A DNA stretch of 64,000 nucleotides from Octopus vulgaris. Taxonomy: Eukaryota. Below the pieces are notes generated by a model, which made no database searches, had not been told where the DNA came from, and saw only the letters and a list, made by a program, of their open reading frames with translations. Positions 28,403 through 64,000 of the stretch are shown here, piece by piece (position 1 is the first letter of the stretch; every line of letters begins with the position of its first letter). Position numbers and translations under genes: made by a program. Location: contig OX597820.1 in assembly GCA_951406725.2 (NCBI GenBank), forward strand, positions 434,001 through 498,000. Direction: 5' to 3'.

Positions 28403-31400
28403 GGGGAAGCTTTATGAAAATAAACAAAAGACGAAGGCAGGTGGAAAACAAACGAACAATTGTATTAGTATGGCGCTCAGGAAATATAAATAAAACAAGT
28501 CTTTAACGTTTCGAGCCTACGCTCTTCAACAGAAAGATACACAGAGAGAGAAAAACACAGAAAGAAGGAGAGAAAAAAATGCGTGCAGTAGCTAACGAAT
28601 CAACATGGCGATCTGATTTCGGCCAGAGGTCAAAGATCAAACATGAGACGCGAGAGCGAAATAAGGGGAGATAATAGGGTTGATAAATGGGTTGAGGGAC
28701 CAGCTAAAAGTGCGTGGGAGGGGTCTGGATGTGTATATGTATAGGGTTGGTGTATGTATTAGTATGTATAAGGGTGTGTGTGTGTGTGTGTGTGTGTATG
28801 AGAGAGTATTAGTGCGTAAGATTGGTCTGGACGTGCGTATGTATGGGGTTGGTGTATGTATTAGTATGTATTAGTATGTATTAGTACGTATTGGTATGTA
28901 TAGGTGTGTGTGTGTGTGTGAGAGAGAGTATAAGTGCGTATGAGGGGTCTGGACGTGTGTATGTATAGGGTTGGTGTAAGTATTAGTATGTACTGGTATG
29001 TATTAGTACGTATTAGTATGTATTAGTTGGTGTGTGTATTAATATGGCACATCATATGTGATGTGATGTGTAAAGTCATGTGGTGTAGTGAGGGGGAGGG
29101 GGAGGAGAGGATGGGGAGAAGGAAGGGGATGAGGGGGATGAAGGAGGAAAGAGGGAGAGGGGGAGAGAGAAGGGGAGAGAGGGAGTGAGGGAGCAGAGGG
29201 AAGGGGAAGAGGGAGGGAGAAAGAGGGAAGAAGGGAAGGGGAGTAGGGGTGAAAGGATGAAGGACTGAAGAAGTAGGGGTCGGGGGAGAAAGGATAGGTG
29301 AGGAGGGGGGAGAGGGGGTTAGATGAGGAGGGGGGAGAGTTGAGACCAAATGGCGTATAAGAGCGAAGAGAGAAGATTAATTCCTGTTCACGGCGCAAAC
29401 GGGAATCCGGATGGCCTCTGTGTAAGGACAAACCGAACACAGATAGGTGTTGCAAGGAGTGACCGGTGGAGCGGAAATGGCGTGAGACTGGTGTGTCGTT
29501 CGCAAGGTGGATGTCACGAAGGTGTTCCGCGAACCGGTCAGCCAAGCGGCGTCCCGTTTGTCCGATGTACAAGGAATTGCAGAGAGAGCAAGAGATGCAA
29601 TAGATAATATTGCTGGAGGTGCAGGTGAAGGAGTGGATGATGGGATAGGGTCGATGGTGGGTGCTAGTGAGGCGGGTGGTGTTGGAGAGGTAAGGGCAAG
29701 TGCGGCAACGTGGGCGGGAAGGATCATTTTATGACTTCATTAAATCAAAAAGTAATTTTATTAGACCAGAGAACAGAAACAAAAGTAGGACTGCAGCTGG
29801 AAGTGCTCAGGTGAGACACTGAGGCGAAAGGAGCTAGAAGGGCTCAGGTGAGACACTGAGGCGAAAGGAGCTAGAAGGGCTCAGGTGAGACACTGAGGCG
29901 AAAGGAGCTAGAAGTGCTCAGGTGAGACACTGAGGCGAAAGGAGCTAGAAGGGCTCGGGTGAGACACTGAGGCGAAAGGAGCTAGAAGGGCTCAGGTGAG
30001 ACACTGAGGCGAAAGGAGCTAGAAGGGCTCAGGTGAGACACTGAGGCGAAAGGAGCTTGAAGGGCTCAGGTGAGACACTGAGGCGAAAGGAGAAATAAAC
30101 TGAAAGGTATAATGAATAAACGCTCCAAAACAACTTTCCCAATCATTCCCAAATTACCAAAAATCGAATCGTTCATCGTTTAACATCCGTTTTCCATGCT
30201 AGCATGGGTTGGATGATTTATCTGAGGACTGGTGAACCAGATGGCTGCACCAAGCTCCAGTCTGATCTGGTAATGTTTCTACAGCTGGATGCCCTTCCTA
30301 ACACCAACCACTCTGAGAGTAGTGGGTGCTTTTTACGTGCCACCGGCATGAAGGCCAGTCAGGCATATAGATATATATGAAAACAATAGGGCACGCAATG
30401 GTTAAACCCAACAGTATACCTACACATAAATAAAAGGTGATAAAACCTAAAAGGGTAATACAAGTGAAATCGAATGAAGAATGTGATAACCAGAAATGTG
30501 AAGCAGATGAAAAGATGTTGCCTTTGGATTTCCCCAATGGATTGTACATCAACGATGTGAAGCAGCATTCTTTGAAACGATTGTAGAGATGGGCTTGAAT
30601 GGACTCTGTTCTGGTTACTTTACACTTTTATATTTATACTCTTGTATTTTTATATATTTATATATTATTTCAGCTCCACTGCCTTAAATATTTAGTCGCC
30701 TTCATGAATTTATTCCATATATATTTTTTATTCATTCAACTTCTCCTATTACCCTTTTAGGTCTTATCACCATATATTTGTGTGTGTATATTTTATACTG
30801 TTGGGTTTAACCATTGGGTGCCCTATTATTTCAATATATATTTATATTTGATTTTTAATAATTTGGGAATGATATAAAGTTGTTTTGACTGATTGGAGCA
30901 CTTATTCATTATACCTTTCAATTTATATGTAAAAGCAGAACTAAGTTATTCTTTAATCTAATGTGTACGTGCGCTGCTCTCTCTCGCCTCTTTCCCTTTT
31001 TACCATTTGGATGCCTTTACAGGAGATTGAACAACAATTAATTGCATGTACATGATGTGTGTGTGTGTGTATTTGTGTATATTTTGCTGAAGTACATCAA
31101 CAAAACATACAAACACTGATGACAAGAACAAAAAAAGGCAAGTACTTTTGAGCAAAAATACCCTTTGTGGTATTTCTCCAACCCAAGTTGTGCAGACAAT
31201 CCCTTATCACTCCCACTACCAACTGGAAACTTGGAATCACAACTGCCATTATGTTACGAAATGTGATGTAAATTTAAGAGAAATATGCAAAAGAAGTTGT
31301 TTGTAAATGCAGTCTTTTATATTTGTTTTTTTGTTGGTTGTTTCAGCATTTATGAATGTAGCAGCCGATGTAAATGTGACTACAGATGTTTCAACAAAGT

Positions 31401-48819: not shown

Positions 48820-48919
48820 NNNNNNNNNNNNNNNNNNNNNNNNNNNNNNNNNNNNNNNNNNNNNNNNNNNNNNNNNNNNNNNNNNNNNNNNNNNNNNNNN
48901 NNNNNNNNNNNNNNNNNNN
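48820..48919. other. Assembly gap (100 N)
   Basis: Run of n. Confidence 1.
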
Positions 48920-49614: not shown

Positions 49615-52600
49615 GTAATAATAATAAAAAATAATAAAAATAGATACAGTTAAGTTATCACCAAGTCCATCCTTCCAAGATCGAAATAACTATGAGTTAA
49701 GAAATGCTGACCACTAGGTAAAGAAAATTTAGATTAATTCGATTGGCTATTGGTTTGAAATTTAAATCACAAAAGAAAATTATACGGTTGGTTAGTCAGG
49801 GAACGCCAATATTCACACACGCATCTACAGATCAATCGCACATACACACATAGTTATATGTATATACATACACTTGTACATATACATAATCATAAGCAAC
49901 AACTAACACTTAGATAAACAAATAGGGAAGCAACCATGCTAACACTAAGTCCTTCAAAATTATAACTGAGCCTCAATAACAAAAAAAGAACCATCCATGC
50001 ATTCTATAAAATATTTAATTAAGATATAAATGTATTTTTAAATATCAGTATGTTACTAATTCAGATAATTATTTCATGGGTAACTTAAAATTTATAACAC
50101 CGGTTTGTTGCAGAGTAAACATACGGTTGTTAGGTTTATCGTAAGTTTGTTATGATTTAAAGTACGCTAAATTATAAAATATAAAATATAAAATATATTA
50201 ATTTAGATATTATAAATAAGTCACTTATTAACTTAATAAATATAGTGCCAAAATATACCAGTTTAGGCAATAAAAAATACAGAGGGGGAAGTATTAATGT
50301 AAACGCTTATGAGAACATCACAGAAATTTTAAATAAATTTTATATTATAAAGACTTAAGCTGAAAAGAGATAAAATAAATAAAAAGGAATAAATACGAAG
50401 GAATAAATACGGTTATACACATAATTATAAAGTACAAACTAGTATATATGTATTCATATATTATTAAAATTAAATAAAAATAAATGATAGATATGTATGT
50501 ATAAAACTACACCAGTATAAGTAAATAAGTAAAGAATAAATAGGTAACAAATTAAATGACTTGATATGTATGTAAACATCCACACTTAAATAGGCAAATA
50601 AATAAATAGATAGAAGACTAGATGCAAATATTGATAATATTACAATAAAATGGGAAATAAATAAAAATAAATAAAGTGAATATATATATTTTATATTGTT
50701 GAAAGTAAATATGTATGGAAGGATAGTTTAAAGTACAGATCCAGAGGACTATAGATATAAATTAAATATATGAGGCTGGTAACAATTATAAAGCAAAATG
50801 CATGTAAATGAGAAAATGAAAAAAATGAAAAAGGTTTATCAGTGAATAACATAAGATACAAATTAAGGTGAGTACAAAAAGACCAAATATATAATAAAAA
50901 CCTTCCAAATCAGCACATACAAAAAACCCATAATCTCAACCTAAACCCACCAAACTCACAAAAGGCTCTCATATATTACATATTATACAATATCATTACA
51001 TTATCCAGAGCTAGGTATCTAACCAAGATATACATATATACTTTGCAATATACTATGCAATATTGGAAAACTTCAAAAATCACACATTACAAGGCAAATA
51101 CCAAAATGAATATGTTATTTTATGTCATATTGCATTTCTCTTAAAAAAAACAAACAAAAACCCACATACAAAAACCAAGAAACCAATAATACTAGACACA
51201 TCCAGTTAGTTATTATACAAATGTAGCTATAAAAATTATAAAATTATGAAATTTATAAATTGTATACTTTAGAATTATAGAAGACCACAGGTATATTTAG
51301 TTAAAGAAGGGAATTAAAAAATTGATAATAGTGGAAGTGCTAAGTTCTATTTGAATCTAGAAAAGGTGAACGGTAGCCTATGAATACAAAAGAAGCTTTT
51401 CTCGTTAATGTTGTTAATAATTTGCCGACCCGCTTTAATAATGAAGAAAATTTCATTAATACATAGAGAGCATTTTTTATTTTTTCCATTATACACAGGT
51501 GCTGAAGTTAGTATTTTCCAGTTTAATCTAAAATCTAAGTTCTTACTTTTAAGTTCCCAAATATATGCACTTAGCCCTGTAGAGTACATTCTATTTTTAT
51601 TCCTAAAAGTATATCTATGATAATTCCATCTTTGTTTTATGCTATTCATAGTTGCCCCGATATACACTCTACTACTCAATTGTGTATCTACAGTGCATTG
51701 GTAAACTACCTCCTTCCTGAGGCATTGATTACCAAATACACATTTATTTTTATTTCTGCAATTACAAAGATTAACAGAATGAGGAAATCTAAGATTGGAC
51801 ACCACCCCTATACTACTATTCACATTATAAGTGTTACAATTGTTATCATCATCCAAACCCAAAATCAACGAATGAGTTAATTCCACATTATCGGCTATAT
51901 TCCTATCACTAGTACTAGTGTTGGTAGTAGTGGTATGATCTATTACATTTATATTATCTCTGACAGGTATGGTGCACTCATTATTAGTAAGGAGGTTGCT
52001 CCCATTTGTTCCAAGAAAATTTCTATTCCTATTATTAATGAAGAGGGGCAAGTTTTCCTGGTCTAAATTCAATTTTCTATCCTTATAGAAGTGGTCCAGT
52101 TTCTTGTTATTAAAAGAGGAGATGATGGTGGCTAGATTATGAGTAATGCTATATCCCACTCTAACAGTACCGTTGTTAATTAAAGGACTAAATTTATTCC
52201 TATCCTTACCAAAATACCTAAAAATAATATTATGCAAAGCTCTCACTATGTTTGTTTTAATCTGCATTGCATACGGGATAATCAACCAAAGAGTATCCTT
52301 ATCAGAATTAGGATTGCCTATAGAATTAATGTTATTTGTAAAAATCCTATTCGTAGACCAACTCATAGGATTACTATTCTTACCACTGTCATTGTTATGT
52401 CTATCTATATCAATATTACCATGGTTATTGCGCAAGTAAACTTTACCATTATCATGTCTACCATAAGTTTTAATTCGTATATTATTATTAATATTACTAC
52501 TACTACTCGTATGTTTAGATCTATTTGAGCTACCGTTCACCTTTCCAAGGTTAACGTCACTTCTACATTTATTATAGGTGTTATCATATATTCTGTTTTT

Positions 52601-53870
52601 ACTATTCTTATGTATATTGTTGATTATCCTAAATCTATTTGTGTTGTTCTTGATAGTTCTACCTCCATTAGGGGTTCCCTTAGGTATAAACCAAATCTTA
52701 CTTTTATATCCTGCCTTAAGTAATGCTGCATTGTATCTATCACAGTGTTTGTTAAAAATTTCCTCGTTTGAGGATAAACTAGAAATTCTTTGACTAATGC
52801 TACGCACTAGTGCATTTTTAATTTGAGGGGGTGATTACTAGAACGGTTAATGTATATTAGGTTAGAATTAGGTTTAATATAGGGTTCATGTAAACCATTA
52901 GTAATGTTACAATTAACATCTAAATAATTAGCAGAATAATTTTCACTTTCAATGATAATGGATAGGCCGAAGCTTTTAAAAAATTTGTTTATTCTTTTTT
53001 TCAGAAGATCTAATCTCCTATTTGATGTATTCCTAACACAAAATAAGGCGTCATCCCTGTATAATCCGCCTTTTAATTCAGGGAATTCCCTACTAAAGTT
53101 ATCTAATAGATACATCCCAACTAGATCAGTCACCTCCGCTGAGTCCGGCGATCCCATTGTGATATCGAACAAGTTGGGTGTGTCCTTTCTAGCCCAAAGT
53201 TTATTATCAAACTCTATTAAAGTTTTCCTGGCTGTTAGTATAACCTTAATCTCCCCATACTTAATTTAGTGTGTTTTCTAGCAAAAATTAAGGACTTATT
53301 TAATATAATAGGGTTAATTGAAGTGTAATAATTCTGTATATCGAATTGTATAAATTTATTTCTATTATAGCTAAAGTTGTTACTGTCACAGACCTTAATG
53401 GCAGAAAACCAATCCAAAGCACCCTGAGTATTCTTCCAAAGGTTTAGTTTGATTTTATTGCGGATGGTGGGTAGATATTTATCTAGAATGAGTTTACTTA
53501 GTCTGCCTAAGTCAGATTTAGTGGGGCAAATTAATCTGACCTGTGTGTTTCCAAGAAAATTCTCTTTATGATCCTTTAGTGTAATTCTCGGTCTGGATGG
53601 GGTGTAGGGTTCCGTTTTTTCTTCTAGGTAGTAGTCAAATATGATTTCTCTGATCTCCAGGTTCAGCTTTCTAAGTGTACTAGAAGGTACTACTTTGTAT
53701 TTCTTGGTTATTTCCTTGTGTAGAAGATCATGATATGCATTAATGTCAATGTTGTAGATGTTGTTAGTTTTGTCAGAATGTGTTAGAATGCCGCTCTTAC
53801 CTTTGAGAGTTCTAATTAAGTCTTTCAATTCTCTTTGGTGCGGGTTATATATATATATACAGTCTCCCAT
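48920..53870 (-). mobile_element. Penelope-like element (Naiad-like) with RT, GIY-YIG and a ~2.4-kb AT-rich 3' region
   Basis: Frameshifted ORFs 53235-53870 (DKT, ITLKDHK, QFDI..YY.SI), 52807-53172 (FDITMGS.DSAEV, GLYRDDAL) and 51347-52807 (CNC..C..C, VVY..VYIGAT, CSLC..E); hammerhead near the 3' end. Confidence 0.9.
49114..49234 (-). ncRNA. Hammerhead motif with ~85-nt branched stem II
   Basis: CTGAAGA-ggc...gcc-GAAAC-attct-GTC; internal hairpins ggcat/atgcc and gagg/cctc; stem I is weak. Confidence 0.6.
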
Positions 53871-54039
53871 ATATTGTCTAGATGTATATATATATAGTGC
53901 TTGTTAGTTTTAATATTTCTTCATAGGTGCTTATATATCGTTTATAGTGTGTTGTTGGTTTATTTTATATATATATATCCTCCATCTGATCCTATATGAA
54001 TTCATTCATTCTATATATATATGGTCTTGGTATATATAG

Positions 54040-54272
<233 letters not shown>

Positions 54273-56989
54273 ATTGATTGATTGATTGATTGATTCCAGT
54301 TCCAGCCTATGAGCTGTGGCCATGCTGGGGCACCGCCATTTGGTGTTGCTACTTGGTTTCACTTCATGGAGGCTTTCTAGCAACTGCTATTTGGTGCATG
54401 AGAGAGTTCGATGCAGCTGCCCTCATCTGCCCCTCCTGCCGTGAAGTTGGTTCATCTGGGACACCTGACAGGAAGAGATCCAGCTTCATTTTAAAGACAT
54501 CTGTATCCACCCCATGCAGGTCTCTCAGGTTCTTCGGGAGGATATTGAAGAGCTGTGGGCCTCGGAAGCCCAGGCTATCACAGAATCTTGTCCTACATCT
54601 TGATGGCAGGTTTGGAGTCCTAGGCACCACGCAGTGCCCAGTTCTGGCATTTGTGTAACTCTCGATGCCAAAGTTCAGGACACTTCCCTCCAGGATCTTC
54701 CAGATGTATATTATGGCATATCTTTCCCGCCTACGCTCCAGGGAGTATAATTTTAATCTCTTGAGTCTTTCCCAGTAGCTTACATTCTGCATAGAGGCTA
54801 TCTTCTTTGTGTAGCTTCGTTGGATCGCCTCAAGTTCTGTGATCAACTTGACACTGGATGGTGACCATAGCTGAGAGCAATAGTCAAAGTGGCTTAGGAC
54901 AAGTGTCTTCCAGAGGACCATCATGGTTTCTTGTTCTCTTGTTCTAAAGGTTCTAAGAATCCAGCCAGCCAGCCGTCTACATTTCACTGTCAGTTTAGCA
55001 ACATGTACATGAAAGGTCGCGTCATCACTCATGTGAATACCCAGGTCACGCACTGATTGTGCCTCTGGGATTGCAATCCCTCCGGGTCCAGTGTATTCAT
55101 TGGGTATTGCATTCAGTTTTGCATGCTGATAGTATAAAGCTTGAAACTTTCCAGCATTGAACTGCATGCTATTCTTTTCAGCCCACTTGTATATTTCGTC
55201 CAGCTCACATTGCAGGTTTTAGTGTCCTCAGGGTTCTGTATTGCCTGTGAAACTTTTGTATCATCTGCATAACTTGTGATCGTGGATCTCTGCGTGGCTG
55301 AGGGCATGTCTGAGAGGGCCATTATGAACAGTAGTGGTCCCAAAACAGTGCCCTGTGGAACACCACTCATTATTTGCGTGTTAATGGAAGTGGCCCCATT
55401 GGCTACTACCACCTGACTTCTATTCTTCAGAAAGTCGTGAAGCCATTCTCCTAGTTTTCCAACTATGCCAAGATCACGCAACCTGTGACATATCATTCCG
55501 TGATCGACTTTATCGAAGGCCTTTGCGAAGTCGAGATATATGACTTCCACATTTGAGTGGTTGAGCAGTTGTTTCAGCACCCAGTCATAGTGCTGCAGGA
55601 GCTGAGTTAAGCAGCTTCTTCCTGGTCGGAAACCATGTTGGGTGTCAGGCAGCAAGTCATTTTCTTCAAGGAAGGTGATTAGTTTCCTTCTGACTATTCG
55701 TTCCATGACCTTGCTGATGTGTGAGGTCAGAGAGATAGGTCTGTAGTTCTTTGCCTCCGCTCTGCTACCTCCTTTATGAATAGGGCATATTTTACCTTCC
55801 TTCAGTCCCCTTGGAAGTTTGCCAGCTGCAAGGAAGCTCTGAAAGAGGGACTGCAGTGGTCTTGCTAAGACTCTCTTACATACTTTTAGGAGGATTGCCG
55901 GGAATCCATCGGGGCCAGTAGCTGAGTCTATTTTCATTTCATCTATAGCCTTTATTACATCGTCTTCCTTTATCTCGATGTAACTTATCGTCGCCGCCTC
56001 TGATTCTATATCTGCAGTGGTAAAGAAGTCAGTTGGATTGCTGATTTGGAAATGCCCAAGGGGTGGAGTGAAAACACTCTTGAATTGTTCATTCAGTATT
56101 TCACTTACCCTCATTGGTTTTCCTGTGAGTGTGCCATCCTTTTCAAGGAGTGGCCCTATCCTACAGTGCACTGTAGCCGTTTCTTTGGCATACCTGTAGA
56201 AAGCTCTGGGGTTAGTTTTTATGTTGTCTATAGCCCAGGCTTCTTTGTCTGCTCTTTCCTTCTCATGGGAAAGTTGCAGACAATTTTCAATTTCCAACAG
56301 TTTTATTTTCAGGCGGGACTTTTCACTACTTTCAATTTGTTTGTTTAGGCGATTTGAAATTTTTGTACGCCGTCTCATTAAAATTTTCCTCTCTCTGGGG
56401 ATTTTGTTCTTGTGTACAGTGGCCTTTCTCTCTGGGACACATTTGTAGCATATGGCTTGCATTACAGACATGAATTGTTGAAGTATCATGTCGATGTCCG
56501 GCGAGGAGAGACATTCAGGCCAGTTTTGTTTGAGGATCTCTTTTCAATTTGTTTCCAGTTTGCCTTATTGAAGTTCAAGCTGGAAAGATTCTGAGGGTTT
56601 CTTGTAGGCTGCATGTCCGTGCTCTCTTTTGGCCCGTACATGGTCAGCTCTACCATGTTGTGATCCGAGAGTAGTGTCGGTGTCACTTTCACATTATGGA
56701 TGAGATCCATATTATTTGTGAAGCAGAGATCCAGTGTGTTACCTGCTCTGGTTGGTTGCAGTATTACTTGCTCCATGTACAGGGTGTTGGTGAGGTTCAG
56801 GAGGGACCTCGCCTGTCCACGTTCACATCTTGTCATTCCTGGGAGAGAAAGGCCCTCGGGCCATCTGACATTCGGTAGATTGAAGTCTCCCATGAGAAGT
56901 ACACTTATGTGTTGTTCTAATGTGGTTAGAACTTCTTCATTTTTAAAAGGCAGTCCTCGAACTTGCCCATATGACTTGGGGCATCTGGA

Positions 56990-56990
<1 letters not shown>
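54273..56990 (-). mobile_element. CR1-like LINE, 5'-truncated within the APE domain
   Basis: ORFs 56486-56893 (GDFNLP, TLDL, SDH), 55113-56489 (RT) and 54364-55167; (ATCA)n tail; both ends abut (TA)n. Confidence 0.94.
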
Positions 56991-57503
<513 letters not shown>

Positions 57504-58721
57504 GCTCGTTATCTAGGTGACCAAGTCAGTAGTGGGGGTGGGTGCGCTGAGAGTGTAACTGCTAGAATAAGAATAGCTCTGGCAAAGTTAGGAGCTCTAT
57601 TTCTCTGCTGGTGACTAAAGGCCTCTCGCTCAGAGAAGTGGGGCAGATCTGTATGATGCATGTATTCGAACTGCCATGCCACATGGCAGAAACATGGGCC
57701 GTGACTGCTGAGGCATGTGCGTAAGCCATGAGGAATGAAGCCAGTATGTTCGATGGATGCAATGTCAGTGTACTTACTCGACAGAGTGTTAGTTCCCTAA
57801 GAGAAATGTTGTACCTAAGAAGCATCAGTTGTTGCGTGCAAGAGAGACGATTGCGATGGTATGGTCATGTGGCTAAGAATGATGAAGATAGGTGTGGGAA
57901 AGTGCCAATCCCTAGCAGTTGAGGGAACCCGTGGAAGAGGTAGACCCAGGAAAACCTGGGACGAGGTGGTGAAGCACGACCTTCGAACGTTAGGTCTCAC
58001 CATGGAAATGACCAGAGACCGAGACCTATGGAAGTATACTGTGCGTGAGAAGACCCGGCAAGACTAGTGAAGCCATAACCCGTGGCCCCTACCTGGGACG
58101 TAGTCAGTCCGCCTGAGCATACCTTCCTGCTTGTGACACTTGTGAAGACCTGTTGAGGCAAATCAAATCAAAGTCAAATCGAATCAAGTCAAACCAAATC
58201 AAAATAGATGAACATCAATGGAATATGTATCCTTGTGGTACCAGTGCCGGTGGCACATAAGAAAACCATCTGAACGGGACCGTAGCCAGTACCGCAAACA
58301 CCGTCCGTGCGTGGCACGTCTGTCCGAGCCTCGTCTGCCACCTGTGTCGGTGGCACATAAAAACACCATCCGAGCGTGGCCGTCTGCCAGCCTCGTCTGG
58401 CACCTGTGTCGGTGGCACATAAAAAACACCATGCGAGCGTGGCCGTCTGCCAGCCTCGTCTGGCACCTGTGTCGGTGGCACATAAAAACACCATCCGAGC
58501 GTGGCCGTTCGCCAGCCTCGTCTGGCACCTGTGTCGGTGGCACATAAAATCACCCACTACACTCTCGGAGTGGTTGGCGTTAGGAAGGGCATCCAGCTGT
58601 AGAAACACTGCCAGATCTGACTGGCCTGGTGCAGCCTTCGGGCTCCCCAGACCCCAGTTGAACTGTCCAACGCATGCTAGCATGGAAAGCGGACGTTAAA
58701 CGACGATGATGATGATGATGA
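57504..58721 (+). mobile_element. RTE-clade LINE 3' part with many indels
   Basis: [29 protein letters not shown] remnants, 3'UTR repeats and (GAT)n tail. Confidence 0.9.
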
Positions 58722-58722
58722 A

Positions 58723-58865
<143 letters not shown>

Positions 58866-58984
58866 TATATATATATATATACTTTCGTCTGGCACCTGTG
58901 TCGGTGGCACATAAAAAATCGTCCAACCCATGCTAGCATGGGAAAGCGGACGTTAAACGATGATGATGATTATGATATAAATAA

Positions 58985-59008
<24 letters not shown>

Positions 59009-59016
<8 letters not shown>

Positions 59017-60156
59017 TATTATTGAGGGTACTACTATTAGTAGATACCAACATGCTAAGAGGGACCAATGCGGTCAAAACTACTAAAAATAAAAACAAAA
59101 TTTTACCGAATGCAAAACTTCAAAACACATCATTTTAAAAAGAATTCAGTTACATATCACATGTGATTTCGCATTTAATGCAGAATATGCATTTCATGTT
59201 CGTCAGTAAACTCAAGAAATTTAAGAAAAAACATAACATTACAAACTCGATAGCCAACCGTAGAATTGGTCGTAGCTTGTACGAATGTTTATCCTTACAT
59301 ATCTATGAAAATGGCGGGCTTTTTCGCAATGCATTTCGGTAACAAATTGCCTAGCCGGAATAAAAAATTCAGTATTGAACTATTCCGGTGAAAAATATAA
59401 ATTAACAATTGAGGATAAAATCTTTAAAAGAAATTATCAGTAGTCAGAGTGAAAAACCTCCGTAAGAGAAAAAATCCGTAAATTCTTCCTCTTTGAAAAT
59501 ATTCATTTATATTATATTGAGGGTACTACTATTCGTAGATACAAACACGCTAAGAGGGACCAATGCGGTCAAAACTACTAAGATTACGGATTTTTTTTTC
59601 TCTTACGAGGTTTTTCACGCTGACTACTGATAATTTCTTTTAAAGATTTTATCCTCAATTGTTAATTTATATTTTTCACCGGAATAGTTCTAATCACTGA
59701 ATTTTTATTCCGACTAGAAAACGATTTGTTACCGAAATGCATTGCGAAAAGCCCGCCATTTTCATAGATATGTAAGGATAAACATTCTGTGACAAGCTAC
59801 GGCGAATTCTACGGTTGGCTATCGAGTTTGTGAATGTTATGTTTTTTTCTTATATTTCTTGAGTTTGTTGCACTGACGAACATGAAATGCATATCCTGCA
59901 TTAAATGCGAAATCACATGTGATATGTAACTGAATTTTAAAATGATGTGTTTTGTAAGTTTTTGCATTCGGTAAAATTTTGTTTATTTTTAGTAGTTTTG
60001 ACCACATAGCGTGTTGGTATCTACGAATAGTAGTACCCTCAATATAATATAAATGAATATTTTCAAAGAGGAAGAATTTACGGATTATTTCTCTTATGAG
60101 GTTTTTCACGCTGACTACTGATAATTTCCTTAAAGATTTTATCCTCAATTGTTAAT
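59009..60156. mobile_element. Inverted pair of ~495-bp hammerhead-containing units, each terminally redundant, flanked by (TA)n
   Basis: attgagggta at 59021 and 59516; orientation switch at ~59583; ttacggat at 59584 and 60078. Confidence 0.85.
59867..59930 (+). ncRNA. Type I hammerhead ribozyme (mirror copy at ~59149-59210, - strand)
   Basis: gttgca-CTGACGA-a-cat-gaa-atgca-tatcc-tgcat-taa-atg-c-GAA-ATCACATGTGAT-A-tgtaac. Confidence 0.78.
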
Positions 60157-60224
60157 ATATATATATATATATATAAATAAATATATATATATATATATAA
60201 ATATATATATATAAATAAATATAT

Positions 60225-60302
<78 letters not shown>

Positions 60303-60405
60303 ATATATATGTGTATATGTATATATATATGTATATATATATGTGTGTATATATATGTGTGTATATATATATATATATGTGTATTTATATATATATATGT
60401 AAATA

Positions 60406-63400
60406 TCATCATCATCATCATCATCGTTTAGCGTCCGTTTTCCATGCTAGCATGGGTTGGACGGTTCTACTGGGGTCTGTGAAGCCAGAAGGCTTCATCA
60501 GGCCCAGTCAAATCTGGCAGTGTTTCTACGGCTGGATGCCCTTCCTAACGCCAACCACTCCGTGAGTGTAGTGGGTGCTTTTTACGTGCCACCGCACAGG
60601 TGCCAGACAGAGCTGGCAAACGGTCACGAACGGATGGTGCTTTTTATGTGCCACCGGCACAAGGGCCAGGCGAGGCTGGCAACGGACACGAAACGGGGCG
60701 GTGCTGGCAACGGTCGCGAAACGGAAGGTTCTCTTACATGCCACCGGCACTGGTAACACATCTGCAATTTCCATTGATCGATTTCCATTCTGATCCTCAC
60801 TTGCCTCAATGGGTCTTCACAAGTAGAGTTTCGACATGCCACCGGCACTGGTAACACATCTGCAATTTCCATTGATCAATTTCGATTCTGATCCTCACTT
60901 GCCTCAACAGGTCTTCACAAGTAGAGTTTTGTGTCCCAAGAAGGGAAGGTATGCATACGTAGGCTGGCTCCATCCCAAGTAGAAGGCCACGGGTTATCGA
61001 CTCACTTGTCCTGCCGGGTCTTCTCGCGCACAGCACACTTCCAGAGGACTCGGTCTCTAGTCATTTCCTCAGTGAGACCTAAAGTTCGAAGGTCGTGCTT
61101 CACCACCTCGTCCCAGGTTTTCCTGGGTCTGCCTCTTCCACAGGTTCCCTCAACCGCTAGGGTGTGGCACTTTTTCACACAACTATCTTCATCCATTCTC
61201 GCCACATGACCATACCAGCGCAATCGTCTCTCTTGCACACCACCACTGATGCTTCTTAGGTCCAGCTTTTCTCTCAAGGTACTTACACTCTGTCGATTAT
61301 GAACACTGACATTACACATCCATCGGAGTATACTGGCTTCATTTCTTGCGAGCTTACGCATATCCTCAGCAGTCACGACCCATGTTTCACTGCCATGTAG
61401 CATGGCTGTTCGTACACACGCATCATACAGTCTGCCTTTCACTCTGTGCGAGAGGCCTTTTGTCACCAGCAGGGGTAAGAGCTCTCTGAACTTTGCCCAA
61501 GCTATTCTTACTCTAGCAGTTACACTTTCAGCACACCCGCCCCCGCTGCTGACTTGGTCACCTAGGTAACGGAAACTATCAACTATTTCTAGTTTTTCTC
61601 CCTGGAAAGTGACGGAAGTTGGTCTCAGAGCATTTTCAGTGTTTATTGTTCCTGAGCATCTGCCACATACAAAAACCATCTTCCTAGTTAGCCTTCCTTT
61701 GACATTGCTGCACCTCTTATGTGTCCATAGCTTACACTTGGTGCATCTTATAGAGTTTCTACCTACACCTTTTCTACAGATCGAGCAGGGCCATCTACCT
61801 GAAGGCGTTTGTGATTTGTCTACCTTCCTACTGATTACGACTTTGGTTTTAGCTAGATTGACTCTGAGGCCCTTCGATTCTAATCCTTGTTTCCACACCT
61901 GAAACTTCTCCTCCAGTTCTGATAGCGACTCAGCAATTAGAGCAAGGTCATCAGCATAGAGGAGCTCCCAAGGGCATCCTGTCTTGAATTCCTCCGTTAT
62001 TGCCTGGAGGACTATGATAAATAGGAGGGGGCTGAGTACTGAGCCTTGGTGGACCCCTACCTCTACCCGGAATTCTTCACTGTACTCGTTTCCAACCCTT
62101 GTACAGCTCTCACTAACCATTCATCTATCCCTAGTTTCCTCATTGCCCACCAGATAAGGGATCGGGGGACCCTGTCGAAGGCTTTCTCCATGTCAACAAA
62201 AGCCAGGCACAGGGGCTTATCTTTGGCTAGGTATTTCTCCTGCAGCTGCCTTACCAGGAATATAGCATCAGTAGTACTTTTCCCTGGCACAAACCCAAAC
62301 TGCATCTCATCTAAACTAACTCTCTCTCTAATTAGTTGGGCTATGACCCTCTCCGTAACCTTCATCACCTGATCCAACAGCTTGATACCTCTGTAATTAT
62401 TTGTATCTAGGGCGTCACCTTTACCTTTGTAGCAGTTGACAATTATGCTGCTACACCAGTCATTGGGTATGACTCCTTTGTGTATCACCTGATTAACTAT
62501 ATGGGTGACTAGGCTATAGCCGACACTACCAGACATTTTGAGCATCTCTGCAGTGATTCCTGATGGGCCTGGGGCTTTTCCTGTCTTCATGCTTCTAATT
62601 GCCTTAGCTACCACGGAACTATCAACTCGGATAGCTGGTCCCACTGTTGGGTCAACATTCGGCAGACTCTCTTTATCCCATTCATTTTCTTTATTCAGCA
62701 AACTTTCATAGTGGCATCTCCAAGCCTCTCTCTTTGCATCCTCATTTAGCGCAAGTGAACCATCTTCCATGCGAACACACTTCTCTCCTACCACATCATG
62801 ATTCTCTCTCACACACTGTCTTGCAACGCGAAACACCTCCAGTCTTTGGTCCTCACGGCGCAGAACATTGGCAAATTTTTTCTTATCTGCTTCCCCTCTG
62901 GCTAAATAAACCTGTCTCTTAGCTTCTCTTTTGGCAGTCTGATACAATTCCCTGCTACCCCCATTTTTCCAGACCTTCCAAGCCTGTCTCTTTTCTCTAA
63001 TAGCCCTGTCTACAATATTGTTCCACCACCACGTTATTCTAGGTCGAGAGGGGACTTTGCACCAGCCACAGATCTGGTCAGTGGCTCTTAGCAGGTTGTC
63101 CCTTAGAAACGTCCAGCTGTCTTCTACCCCCTGTGATGCTCTATCCCCTTCTACTTCGTCAGAGGCTTCAAGTAACATGTCTCTAAATCTCTGTCCATTT
63201 GCAGGATCTTTAAGCTTCCAGATCCTTCTTCTCCATATTGGTCGTCTTCTGGTTGTCCTCCTAGTCCTGATCCTAAAGTCACTAACTACCAGTCTATGTT
63301 GTGGGGTACATTCTTCACCTGGGAAGGTTTTGGCATTTATAAGCAGCCATCTCTCCCTTTGCCTTGCAAGGATGTAGTCAATTTGGCTGGTATGTTGGCC

Positions 63401-64000
63401 CGATCGGTAAGTGACTAGGTGGCTGGTAGGTTTCCTGAAGTTAGTGTTGCAAATCATAAGATTATTTGCATCGCAGAACTCCAGCAGCCTGGTTCCCTCC
63501 TCGTTTCGGGAGCCATAGCCATAGCCTCCATGTACGCCATGGAAGCCCCCAGCATGTCGTCCAACGTGACCATTGAAGTCACCAGCCACAAAGATAAGGT
63601 CTCTGTCGTTCGTCAACGAGGTAGTCTGCAGTAGAGTGTCATAGAATCGGTCTTTCTGTCCATCGGGTAGCCCCGACTGAAAAGCATAGGCTGATATAAT
63701 GGTTGCTAAACTATGATGAAGCACTAATCTAATCTTAAGTATTCTGTCACATACTCTGATTACCTCAATTACTTTATCTACCCATTTCTCAGCGATAAGT
63801 ATACCCACGCCACCAACCCCGTCAGTGTTCCCTGCCCAGAAAATCTTGTACCTGCGTTCCTTGCCTGTGAGGAACCTAGCTGATCCTCCTCTCCACCTTA
63901 TTTCTTGCATGCAACATATATCCACACATCTCCGTTCAAGCATCTCGACTATCTCACCAGACCTACTTTTCAGAGTGCCAACGTTGAGGGTGCCAACCCT
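60406..64000 (-). mobile_element. RTE-clade LINE, near full-length ORF (APE-RT-PHD), 5' end beyond window
   Basis: ORFs 62063-63943 and 61002-62120 are separated by one ~31-bp deletion at ~62100 relative to the 16.0-kb copy; (CAT)n tail. Confidence 0.96.

Follow-up and report, generated by a model that had tools for sequence, protein, structure and literature searches.

Introduction

The closest described relatives of the element analysed here are the non-LTR retrozymes of animals and the PLEs, for which the papers cited are represented by their available portions. Circular retrozyme RNAs have been described in coral, mussel and axolotl together with a proposal that PLEs mobilise them (Cervera and de la Pena 2020, PMC7229834), circular templates having been proposed already in earlier work (Cervera 2014, PMC4209133), in which the short-looped or palindromic stem III of other animal hammerheads is associated with dimer cleavage (PMC4209133). 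The retrozymes of Xenopus are linked to pLTRs, and only one of nine Xenopus elements cleaved (Li et al. 2026, 10.64898/2026.07.22.740005). PLE insertions are described as carrying a copy in inverted orientation and a tail of 30-40 bp that is often confined to one end (Arkhipova et al. 2013, PMC3846280; Craig et al. 2021, PMC8557442). A lizard PLE cuts and extends both strands in vitro and starts at two internal sites (Frangieh et al. 2024, PMC11167929), with no difference in start site seen between the strands and with no need for hammerhead cleavage in vitro (PMC11167929). Two questions are left open in the accessible text of these accounts (PMC8557442, PMC7229834, PMC11167929), namely by what route PLE insertions become tandem and inverted, and what enzyme mobilises the retrozymes of animals.

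In this study we explore an element of Octopus vulgaris that is 497 nt long and present in hundreds of young copies, and which provides statistics that long PLEs do not give: a one-end-each rule, arms of the same lineage and variants common to repeats. With it, both open questions are reduced to two components, a short RNA in linear or circular form and an intact protein of 960 aa, and its insertions are an unusually clean, testable read-out of PLE integration. By its sequence features the element is classed as a retrozyme, more exactly as a real, young, PLE-type non-LTR retrozyme that appears to work like a miniature PLE. The class itself is already known; its novelty lies in ends that pair strictly one of each kind, in the length of the tail, and in signs within the genome that a monomer was read more than once.

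Like metazoan non-LTR retrozymes as described in the available parts of PMC7229834 and Li et al. 2026, the element has a short, low-GC, non-coding unit with one type I hammerhead, a palindromic helix III, head-to-tail repeats and a predicted self-paired circle, and shares its genome with PLEs; its weak stem II base recalls axolotl HHR_Amex2 (PMC7229834). Unlike these retrozymes, its copies are dispersed, mostly 5'-truncated and at most 2.44 units long, with no satellite arrays, and the unit measures 497 bp as against the 150-450 bp first described for metazoan retrozymes (PMC7229834). Two fixed 3' ends, inverted arms and (TA)n targeting were not found described for retrozymes in the same portions of PMC7229834 and Li et al. 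2026. Unlike the Xenopus retrozymes, the unit has no matching pLTR in the two young PLE families compared.

The likeness to PLE insertions, as far as the available text of PMC3846280, PMC8557442 and PMC11167929 describes them, extends to 5' truncation, partial tandems, a head-to-head inverted copy, a tail at one end, an AT-rich target and two internal starts. In contrast to them, the unit has no ORF, its tail is ~110 nt long (174 nt in the Hydra family of the same genome) rather than 30-40 nt, and the one-tail rule is strict (81/81), where for PLEs the accessible descriptions have 'optional' or 'often'. The non-autonomous PLEs of Chlamys, such as MRC1 (PMC8557442), are likewise non-coding, form pLTRs and occur as head-to-tail multicopy insertions; unlike the present unit, they share 3' sequence with their partners, and most Chlamys elements are without a hammerhead (PMC8557442, available portion). 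A search of the literature, in which few subscription papers were covered, found no report of the unit family, of a strict one-end-each count or of such ends in a retrozyme.

Anatomy of the locus

The window, that is, the whole stretch of 64,000 nucleotides analysed, corresponds to C7:434001-498000 of a 2.8-Gb genome. The locus consists of two diverging arms of one repeat, flanked by (TA)n tracts on either side. Unit positions are numbered from the base after the hammerhead cut on a 497-bp consensus built from 30 loci. The features are as follows.

58978..59008, no strand: left (TA)n target flank
59009..59581, minus strand: left arm, unit 68 to 497 and 1 to 144 (1.15 units, 77 nt redundancy), 3' end at site B against (TA)n, 97% identical to the family consensus
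59149..59212, minus strand: hammerhead of the left arm, with its cut predicted between 59155 and 59154; stem I is 5 bp short here and complete in the C12 copy
59401..59416, minus strand: site A, internal read-through copy in the left arm
59582..59583, no strand: head-to-head junction of two 5'-truncated arms, 2 extra bases; identical junction at C12:46.27 Mb
59584..60162, plus strand: right arm, unit 168 to 497 and 1 to 253 (1.17 units, ~79-86 nt redundancy), 3' end at site A against (TA)n, element-specific to ~60156
59867..59930, plus strand: right type I hammerhead, CUGACGA core at 59873, 6-bp stem I, 12-nt palindrome in stem III, AUA site, predicted cut after 59924
60035..60054, plus strand: site B, internal read-through copy in the right arm
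60055-60156, plus strand: ~110-nt tail between B and A, right arm
60157..60400, no strand: right (TA)n target flank

The original prediction, made from the letters of the window, had proposed a ~495-bp unit with arms exceeding unit length. Both arms do exceed one unit, the repeat spacing being 495 in the left arm and 490-491 in the right, against a family consensus of 497. Terminal redundancy is present as predicted but is larger, at 77 rather than 65-70 nt on the left and ~79-86 rather than ~75 nt on the right, and what had been taken for the left 'start', near attgagggta, is really the 3' end of that arm. The absence of a credible ORF is confirmed: at a GC fraction of 0.32 (32%), the longest Met-started ORF of the unit is 39 aa in sense and 49 aa in antisense. 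An ORF for RT plus GIY-YIG is absent from the unit, which is therefore not an autonomous PLE.

The same locus occurs on C12 with an identical junction and both hammerheads intact; the window differs from it mostly by scattered indels, and the right arm is 93% identical to the consensus in the window and 98% in the C12 copy. Of the two, the copy in the window probably carries more noise. The duplication between window 54042-60406 and C12:46.26-46.28 Mb takes in ~6-7 kb plus neighbouring blocks in rearranged order, at 95-99% identity; the window version is rich in indels, has a 100-N gap at 48820, and could be misplaced or unpolished. Two RTE-like LINE 3' ends (window 57501-58881 and 60244-64000) converge on the TA tract of the element, the right one with its endonuclease, RT and PHD-like finger spread across a frameshift.

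The predicted hammerhead ribozyme

Core, stems and NUH site of a type I hammerhead are present in the unit, and the stem II closing pair is non-canonical. For the right-arm ribozyme, the 6-bp stem I, 12-nt palindrome, AUA site and predicted cut after 59924 stand as originally read, but the closing pair of stem II is A.C instead of G-C. This pair is fixed in the subfamily to which the window copy belongs, the A occurring in 176 of 177 arm copies. Rfam returned no match at the gathering threshold and no hammerhead match at E<=10. A degenerate motif search of the genome recovered 870 related hammerheads, and three further subfamilies (88%, 75% and ~69%) have kept the hammerhead and the same two end sites, with A+B in their inverted pairs.

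When 16 hammerhead motifs were aligned, 94% of cells were paired, as against 20-42% in slid controls, with two-sided changes in three stem II pairs and one-sided changes in stem I. Judged from these aligned sequences, the helices covary across the four subfamilies, the 16 motifs coming from related sequences and the number of covarying pairs being no higher than in shuffles (425/500). All four bases occur at position 7 of the aligned motifs, and the closing pair of stem II is G-C in six, G-U in two and unpaired in eight. Since stem III is either a palindrome or closed by a 1-2-nt loop, the RNA would probably be cut as a dimer. Core positions vary less than the rest (9/1973 vs 1211/90652 elsewhere), many of the copies having been picked on part of the core. 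Folded alone, the hammerhead was not recovered as the minimum-energy structure (z -0.6 to 0.5). Stem I has a predicted probability of 0.2. Self-cleavage of the unit RNA is a prediction from motif and pairing.

Unrelated hammerhead-like motifs were encountered in random repeat-rich loci (L228:850, plus strand; L228:4034, L220:6230 and L206:45, minus strand), which suggests additional retrozyme or PLE families in the genome.

Two fixed ends and their strict pairing

A 22-nt stretch of the hammerhead core has 152 exact matches in the genome, and a 25-mer close to site B, just before position 144, has 694, a difference that amounts to a 5'-truncation gradient; reversed controls gave 0. A set of 198 loci, picked by similarity to either arm or by these two motifs (the first 100 matches listed for each), was mapped and resolved into 157 insertions, a total that is really ~160 in that three single-arm loci (L018, L023, L187) were over-merged by end signature, pair counts being unaffected. 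Four loci of the 88% subfamily (L234, L235, L238, L239) share one junction, 187/290, and are not independent; three lie within 0.2 Mb of C1 and one is distant, so that either duplication with flanks or re-mobilisation as a unit would account for them.

Mapping of starts and ends, as the original prediction had proposed, showed that only the 5' ends are scattered along the unit. Read in hammerhead sense, 237 of 250 outer 3' ends fall at one of two sites 110 nt apart, site B (range 136-152, mostly 141-144) or site A (236-256, mostly 253, the last specific base being ~246), and TA-rich DNA adjoins 223 of 238 A/B ends. Two arms are present in 93 of the 157 insertions, every one of them head-to-head and none tail-to-tail. 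In all 81 pairs with both ends at these sites the combination is A+B, with neither AA nor BB (0 each; p=4e-25 vs independence), while 12 further two-armed insertions have one end off the sites. Single arms end at A in 30 cases, at B in 33 and elsewhere in one. Sampling by the site-B motif only (60 insertions) likewise gave A+B in 30/30 pairs, with four more pairs off-site.

These counts bear directly on the ground from which a circular template had originally been argued, namely that the two arms are different circular permutations. Permutation no longer serves this purpose: the arms differ because there are two priming sites with fixed 3' ends and because 5' truncation is random, as in PLEs, and the original comparison had set the fixed 3' end of one arm against the random 5' truncation of the other. 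Fixed termini common to all copies, which the original prediction had named as speaking against it, were observed on the 3' side alone.

The two arms of an insertion also agree with one another. Across 27 informative pairs, subfamily-diagnostic positions concur in 108/109 cases, as against ~63/121 with shuffled partners, the sole disagreement coming from the noisy arm of the window; activity of one subfamily at a time could equally produce such concordance. A common start position (within 3 nt) is found in 10 of 81 pairs (permutation mean 1.8), within the same unit for six of them and with an offset of one unit for four. Such pairs fit an enzyme that catches up with the end of the other cDNA and then jumps onto it; both kinds could come from one geometry on a circle, and a linear dimer could also give both. 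In 65 of the 81 pairs the A arm runs past B, so that both cDNAs overlap on the template.

In sum of its anatomy, the insertion displays 5' truncation, a partial tandem, an inverted 5' copy and a one-sided tail, as PLEs do, and targets the microsatellite (TA)n as do Hydra, Neptune and Naiad, target-site duplications being unreadable within such flanks. At two loci (L169, L278) the junctions are complex: around unit 15-45 the template was switched several times over short distances, and the start of the hammerhead core is present three times, which points to repeated stalling at the ribozyme.

Why the ends lie at A and B

A third stretch of the unit, 348-352, is as TA-like as A and B and was never found as an end. 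In the predicted circular fold, A and B rank 3rd-18th of 497 positions for unpairedness (top 4%), and 348-352 ranks 393rd and is predicted to be paired. TA microhomology alone was rejected as the cause of the ends, the equal site 348-352 being unused. Pairing of B with A, which are exact 9-nt reverse complements and pair when a 140-nt piece is folded alone, was dropped as well, its probability in the whole circle being 0.

A monomer probably read more than once

The original reading of a retrozyme-like element, with copies exceeding the unit and a likely circular or tandem template, is supported. The cut site is crossed by 159 of 237 arms; in this sample, which is enriched for long arms, 83 are longer than one unit and the longest reaches 2.44 units. 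In the site-B sample 17 of 94 arms exceed one unit, and the arms of the window contain one hammerhead each. Searching the whole genome for pairs of hammerheads spaced by one unit identified at least 26 arms, a lower bound in that the search missed L087, none of them adjacent and none longer than 2.18 units; arrays beyond 2.44 units were found neither in this search nor among the mapped arms.

Within an arm, diagnostic positions of successive repeats agree in 91/93 cases. Twelve rare variants (in <=3 insertions) are present in both repeats, distributed over 10 of 26 tandem arms, and 81 differences are confined to one repeat. In a larger set the corresponding numbers are 18 and 139, shuffled partners sharing 0.4. 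This pattern would be expected if a single monomer had been read repeatedly and the copies had then aged; gene conversion, polishing or an unassembled array could produce it too. Stops at exactly one full turn are in no clear excess (13/88; neighbours 3/91 to 10/64). The predicted sense circle has a folding energy of -114.6 kcal/mol, with 64% of bases paired and z -3.9 against 40 shuffles.

Contigs from three public runs guessed to be RNA and from one run of unknown kind cover the unit and join its end to its start, none of the public runs holding the unit being on record as RNA. In run X2 a single 526-nt contig closes the unit on itself, breaks at site A and has a haplotype matching no sampled copy; as a weak hint, this fits a cycle with exit at A, and tandem DNA would look alike.

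Taken together, we regard a monomer template read more than once as well favoured, and a covalently circular one as favoured to a lesser degree; the argument for circularity rests on read-through of the cut site, on the absence of long arrays and on the variants common to repeats.

Other readings of the same data

The alternative with the strongest claim invokes the same two-site priming on linear RNA, either a tandem transcript that stays uncut (made from two-hammerhead copies or from an array missing in the assembly) or a cleaved monomer in which stem I keeps the two ends together, so that the enzyme jumps from the 5' to the 3' end. With closing pairs as weak as A.C or U.U, transcripts would tend to stay uncut, unprocessed RNA is the main substrate of the lizard PLE according to the available text of PMC11167929, and genome assembly is able to collapse arrays. 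Unit 1-20, the interval that directly follows the cut, also collects more stops than the background of ~5% (20/210, p=0.007 uncorrected), but unit 321-340, another of the 25 intervals compared, has equally many (16/142), so that the excess at the cut site is not special. Moreover, with no array beyond 2.44 units, linear inheritance would shorten the copies at each round, yet there are four subfamilies, and no recurring difference separates first from second repeats. The nicked-monomer version and the circle look alike in genomic data. On balance we find linear RNA unlikely, if still to be taken seriously.

Considerably less probable is an origin of the inverted arm by self-priming, in which one cDNA or an antisense template folds back on itself, as suggested for rotifer Penelope (PMC3846280, available portion). 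It would agree with the 10 of 81 junctions that are perfect or near-perfect palindromes and with the short overlaps of 1-6 nt that are common at arm junctions. In 62 of 81 pairs, however, more than 15 nt separate the two starts, for some arms the starts differ by one unit, and fold-back provides no reason for the second arm always ending at the other site. The antisense strand (-82.5 vs -90.8+-6.2 for shuffled sense) folds no better than shuffles, whereas the sense circle does.

Similarly, we give very little credence to the unit being a mere pseudo-LTR of a longer coding PLE with the arms as its truncated ends, a possibility that had been named as damaging to the original reading: the insertion anatomy is indeed that of PLEs, and Xenopus retrozymes match pLTRs in the accessible part of Li et al. 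2026 (10.64898/2026.07.22.740005), but at the loci examined each of the 83 arms exceeding one unit continues into a further unit and never into coding DNA, and the PLE fragments detected by tblastn near unit copies are, in the four inspected, separate insertions beyond TA runs. Remote ancestry of the unit from a pLTR may nevertheless apply. An inversion created by a chimeric or folded-back read, the other such possibility, is the least credible of all: the copy in the window has many indels and is flanked by inverted repeats at 84-88%, yet the identical junction is cleanly assembled on C12, the arms differ in permutation, which a fold-back read cannot produce, two arms are present in 93 of 157 insertions, and the flanks belong to a repeat found elsewhere in the window at 85-88%.

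A proposed scheme for integration

We therefore return to two-site priming, and consider it likely that the insertion was made by a PLE-type RT priming from both strands of the cut (TA)n on a probably circular monomer RNA; for PLE-driven integration with two-site priming, taken by itself, our confidence is high. A genomic copy with two hammerheads would be transcribed, cut, probably as a dimer, and ligated into a 497-nt circle, which a PLE protein, most likely of the young Hydra-clade family, would bind while nicking both (TA)n strands. One DNA end would then prime at B and the other at A, both predicted to be single-stranded AU-rich loops. Each cDNA would extend over a random distance, sometimes for more than one round, displacing the other, and a template jump or short microhomology would connect the two cDNA 3' ends into head-to-head arms; alternatively, capture of a single cDNA would give single arms of either type.

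In twin priming by LINE-1 both DNA ends prime on one RNA, yielding diverging arms; one primer is at the poly(A) tail and the other is random, and the arms barely overlap. Unlike the L1 case, both sites are fixed and internal here, and 65 of 81 A arms overlap the template of the B arm.

More tentatively, PLEs at large might integrate by obligatory asymmetric twin priming, with one complex and one RNA (here the 497-nt circle) using two fixed sites, such that tail, inverted pLTR and partial tandem come from one step, and the element might be the first animal circular RNA to record rolling reverse transcription by a Hydra-clade enzyme; we would call this broader view conceivable rather than probable. 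If true, it would constitute genomic evidence of circular RNA as a transposition template in animals.

Candidate partners among the PLEs

Two young PLE families were compared with the unit, and with neither of these two was there alignable homology (score 79.5 vs shuffled 76+-7). The link between the unit and a PLE partner is inferred, since neither family aligns with it.

The Hydra-clade family (L382), assigned by its motifs as given in section 11 of Craig et al. 2021 (PMC8557442, available portion), has an intact 960-aa ORF with DKT, the CxCx5C linker, CxxC and CxH near the end, a hammerhead and a (TA)n target; RWK reads RWR. There are 19,838 candidate matches, most of the 150 scored being at 96-100% identity. 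Its hammerhead lies 492 nt before the long end, the two ends are 174 nt apart, and inverted insertions in which both ends could be read combine short and long in 6/6 cases (16 stretches). The unit thus resembles it in the (TA)n target, the 3'-region hammerhead, the two distant 3' ends, the short-plus-long pairing and extreme youth. In contrast to the unit, the Hydra-clade PLE is a 5.6-kb coding element whose minimal hammerhead has a long stem II, and only a short pyrimidine-then-ATTT end motif is common to both. The family shows a 5.6-kb tandem period and a 2.4-2.6-kb AT-rich 3' region, and a 5'-truncated, frameshifted copy with asparagine-rich inserts, not detected by Pfam, lies at window 49800-54040 on the minus strand.

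The Neptune-type family encodes 781 aa with RVT_1 and GIY-YIG, is young, targets (TA)n, and has a ~35-nt tail and an end motif resembling A; one short-plus-long inverted case was seen among 30 loci, and a scan of the family for a hammerhead was negative. In this family (L219-L226) an upstream, overlapping frame, 333-479 aa long, matches nothing in Pfam, and the 3' region contains a repeat array. It is kept as the second candidate partner, the Hydra-clade family being the better behavioural match and, in our estimate, slightly favoured as the mobilising partner.

Fragments of a third, GC-rich PLE family with a C-terminal GIY-YIG, ~27-35% identical to the Neptune-type protein, lie in TA runs at window 29042-29728 (minus strand) and at three other loci (L153, L160, L271).
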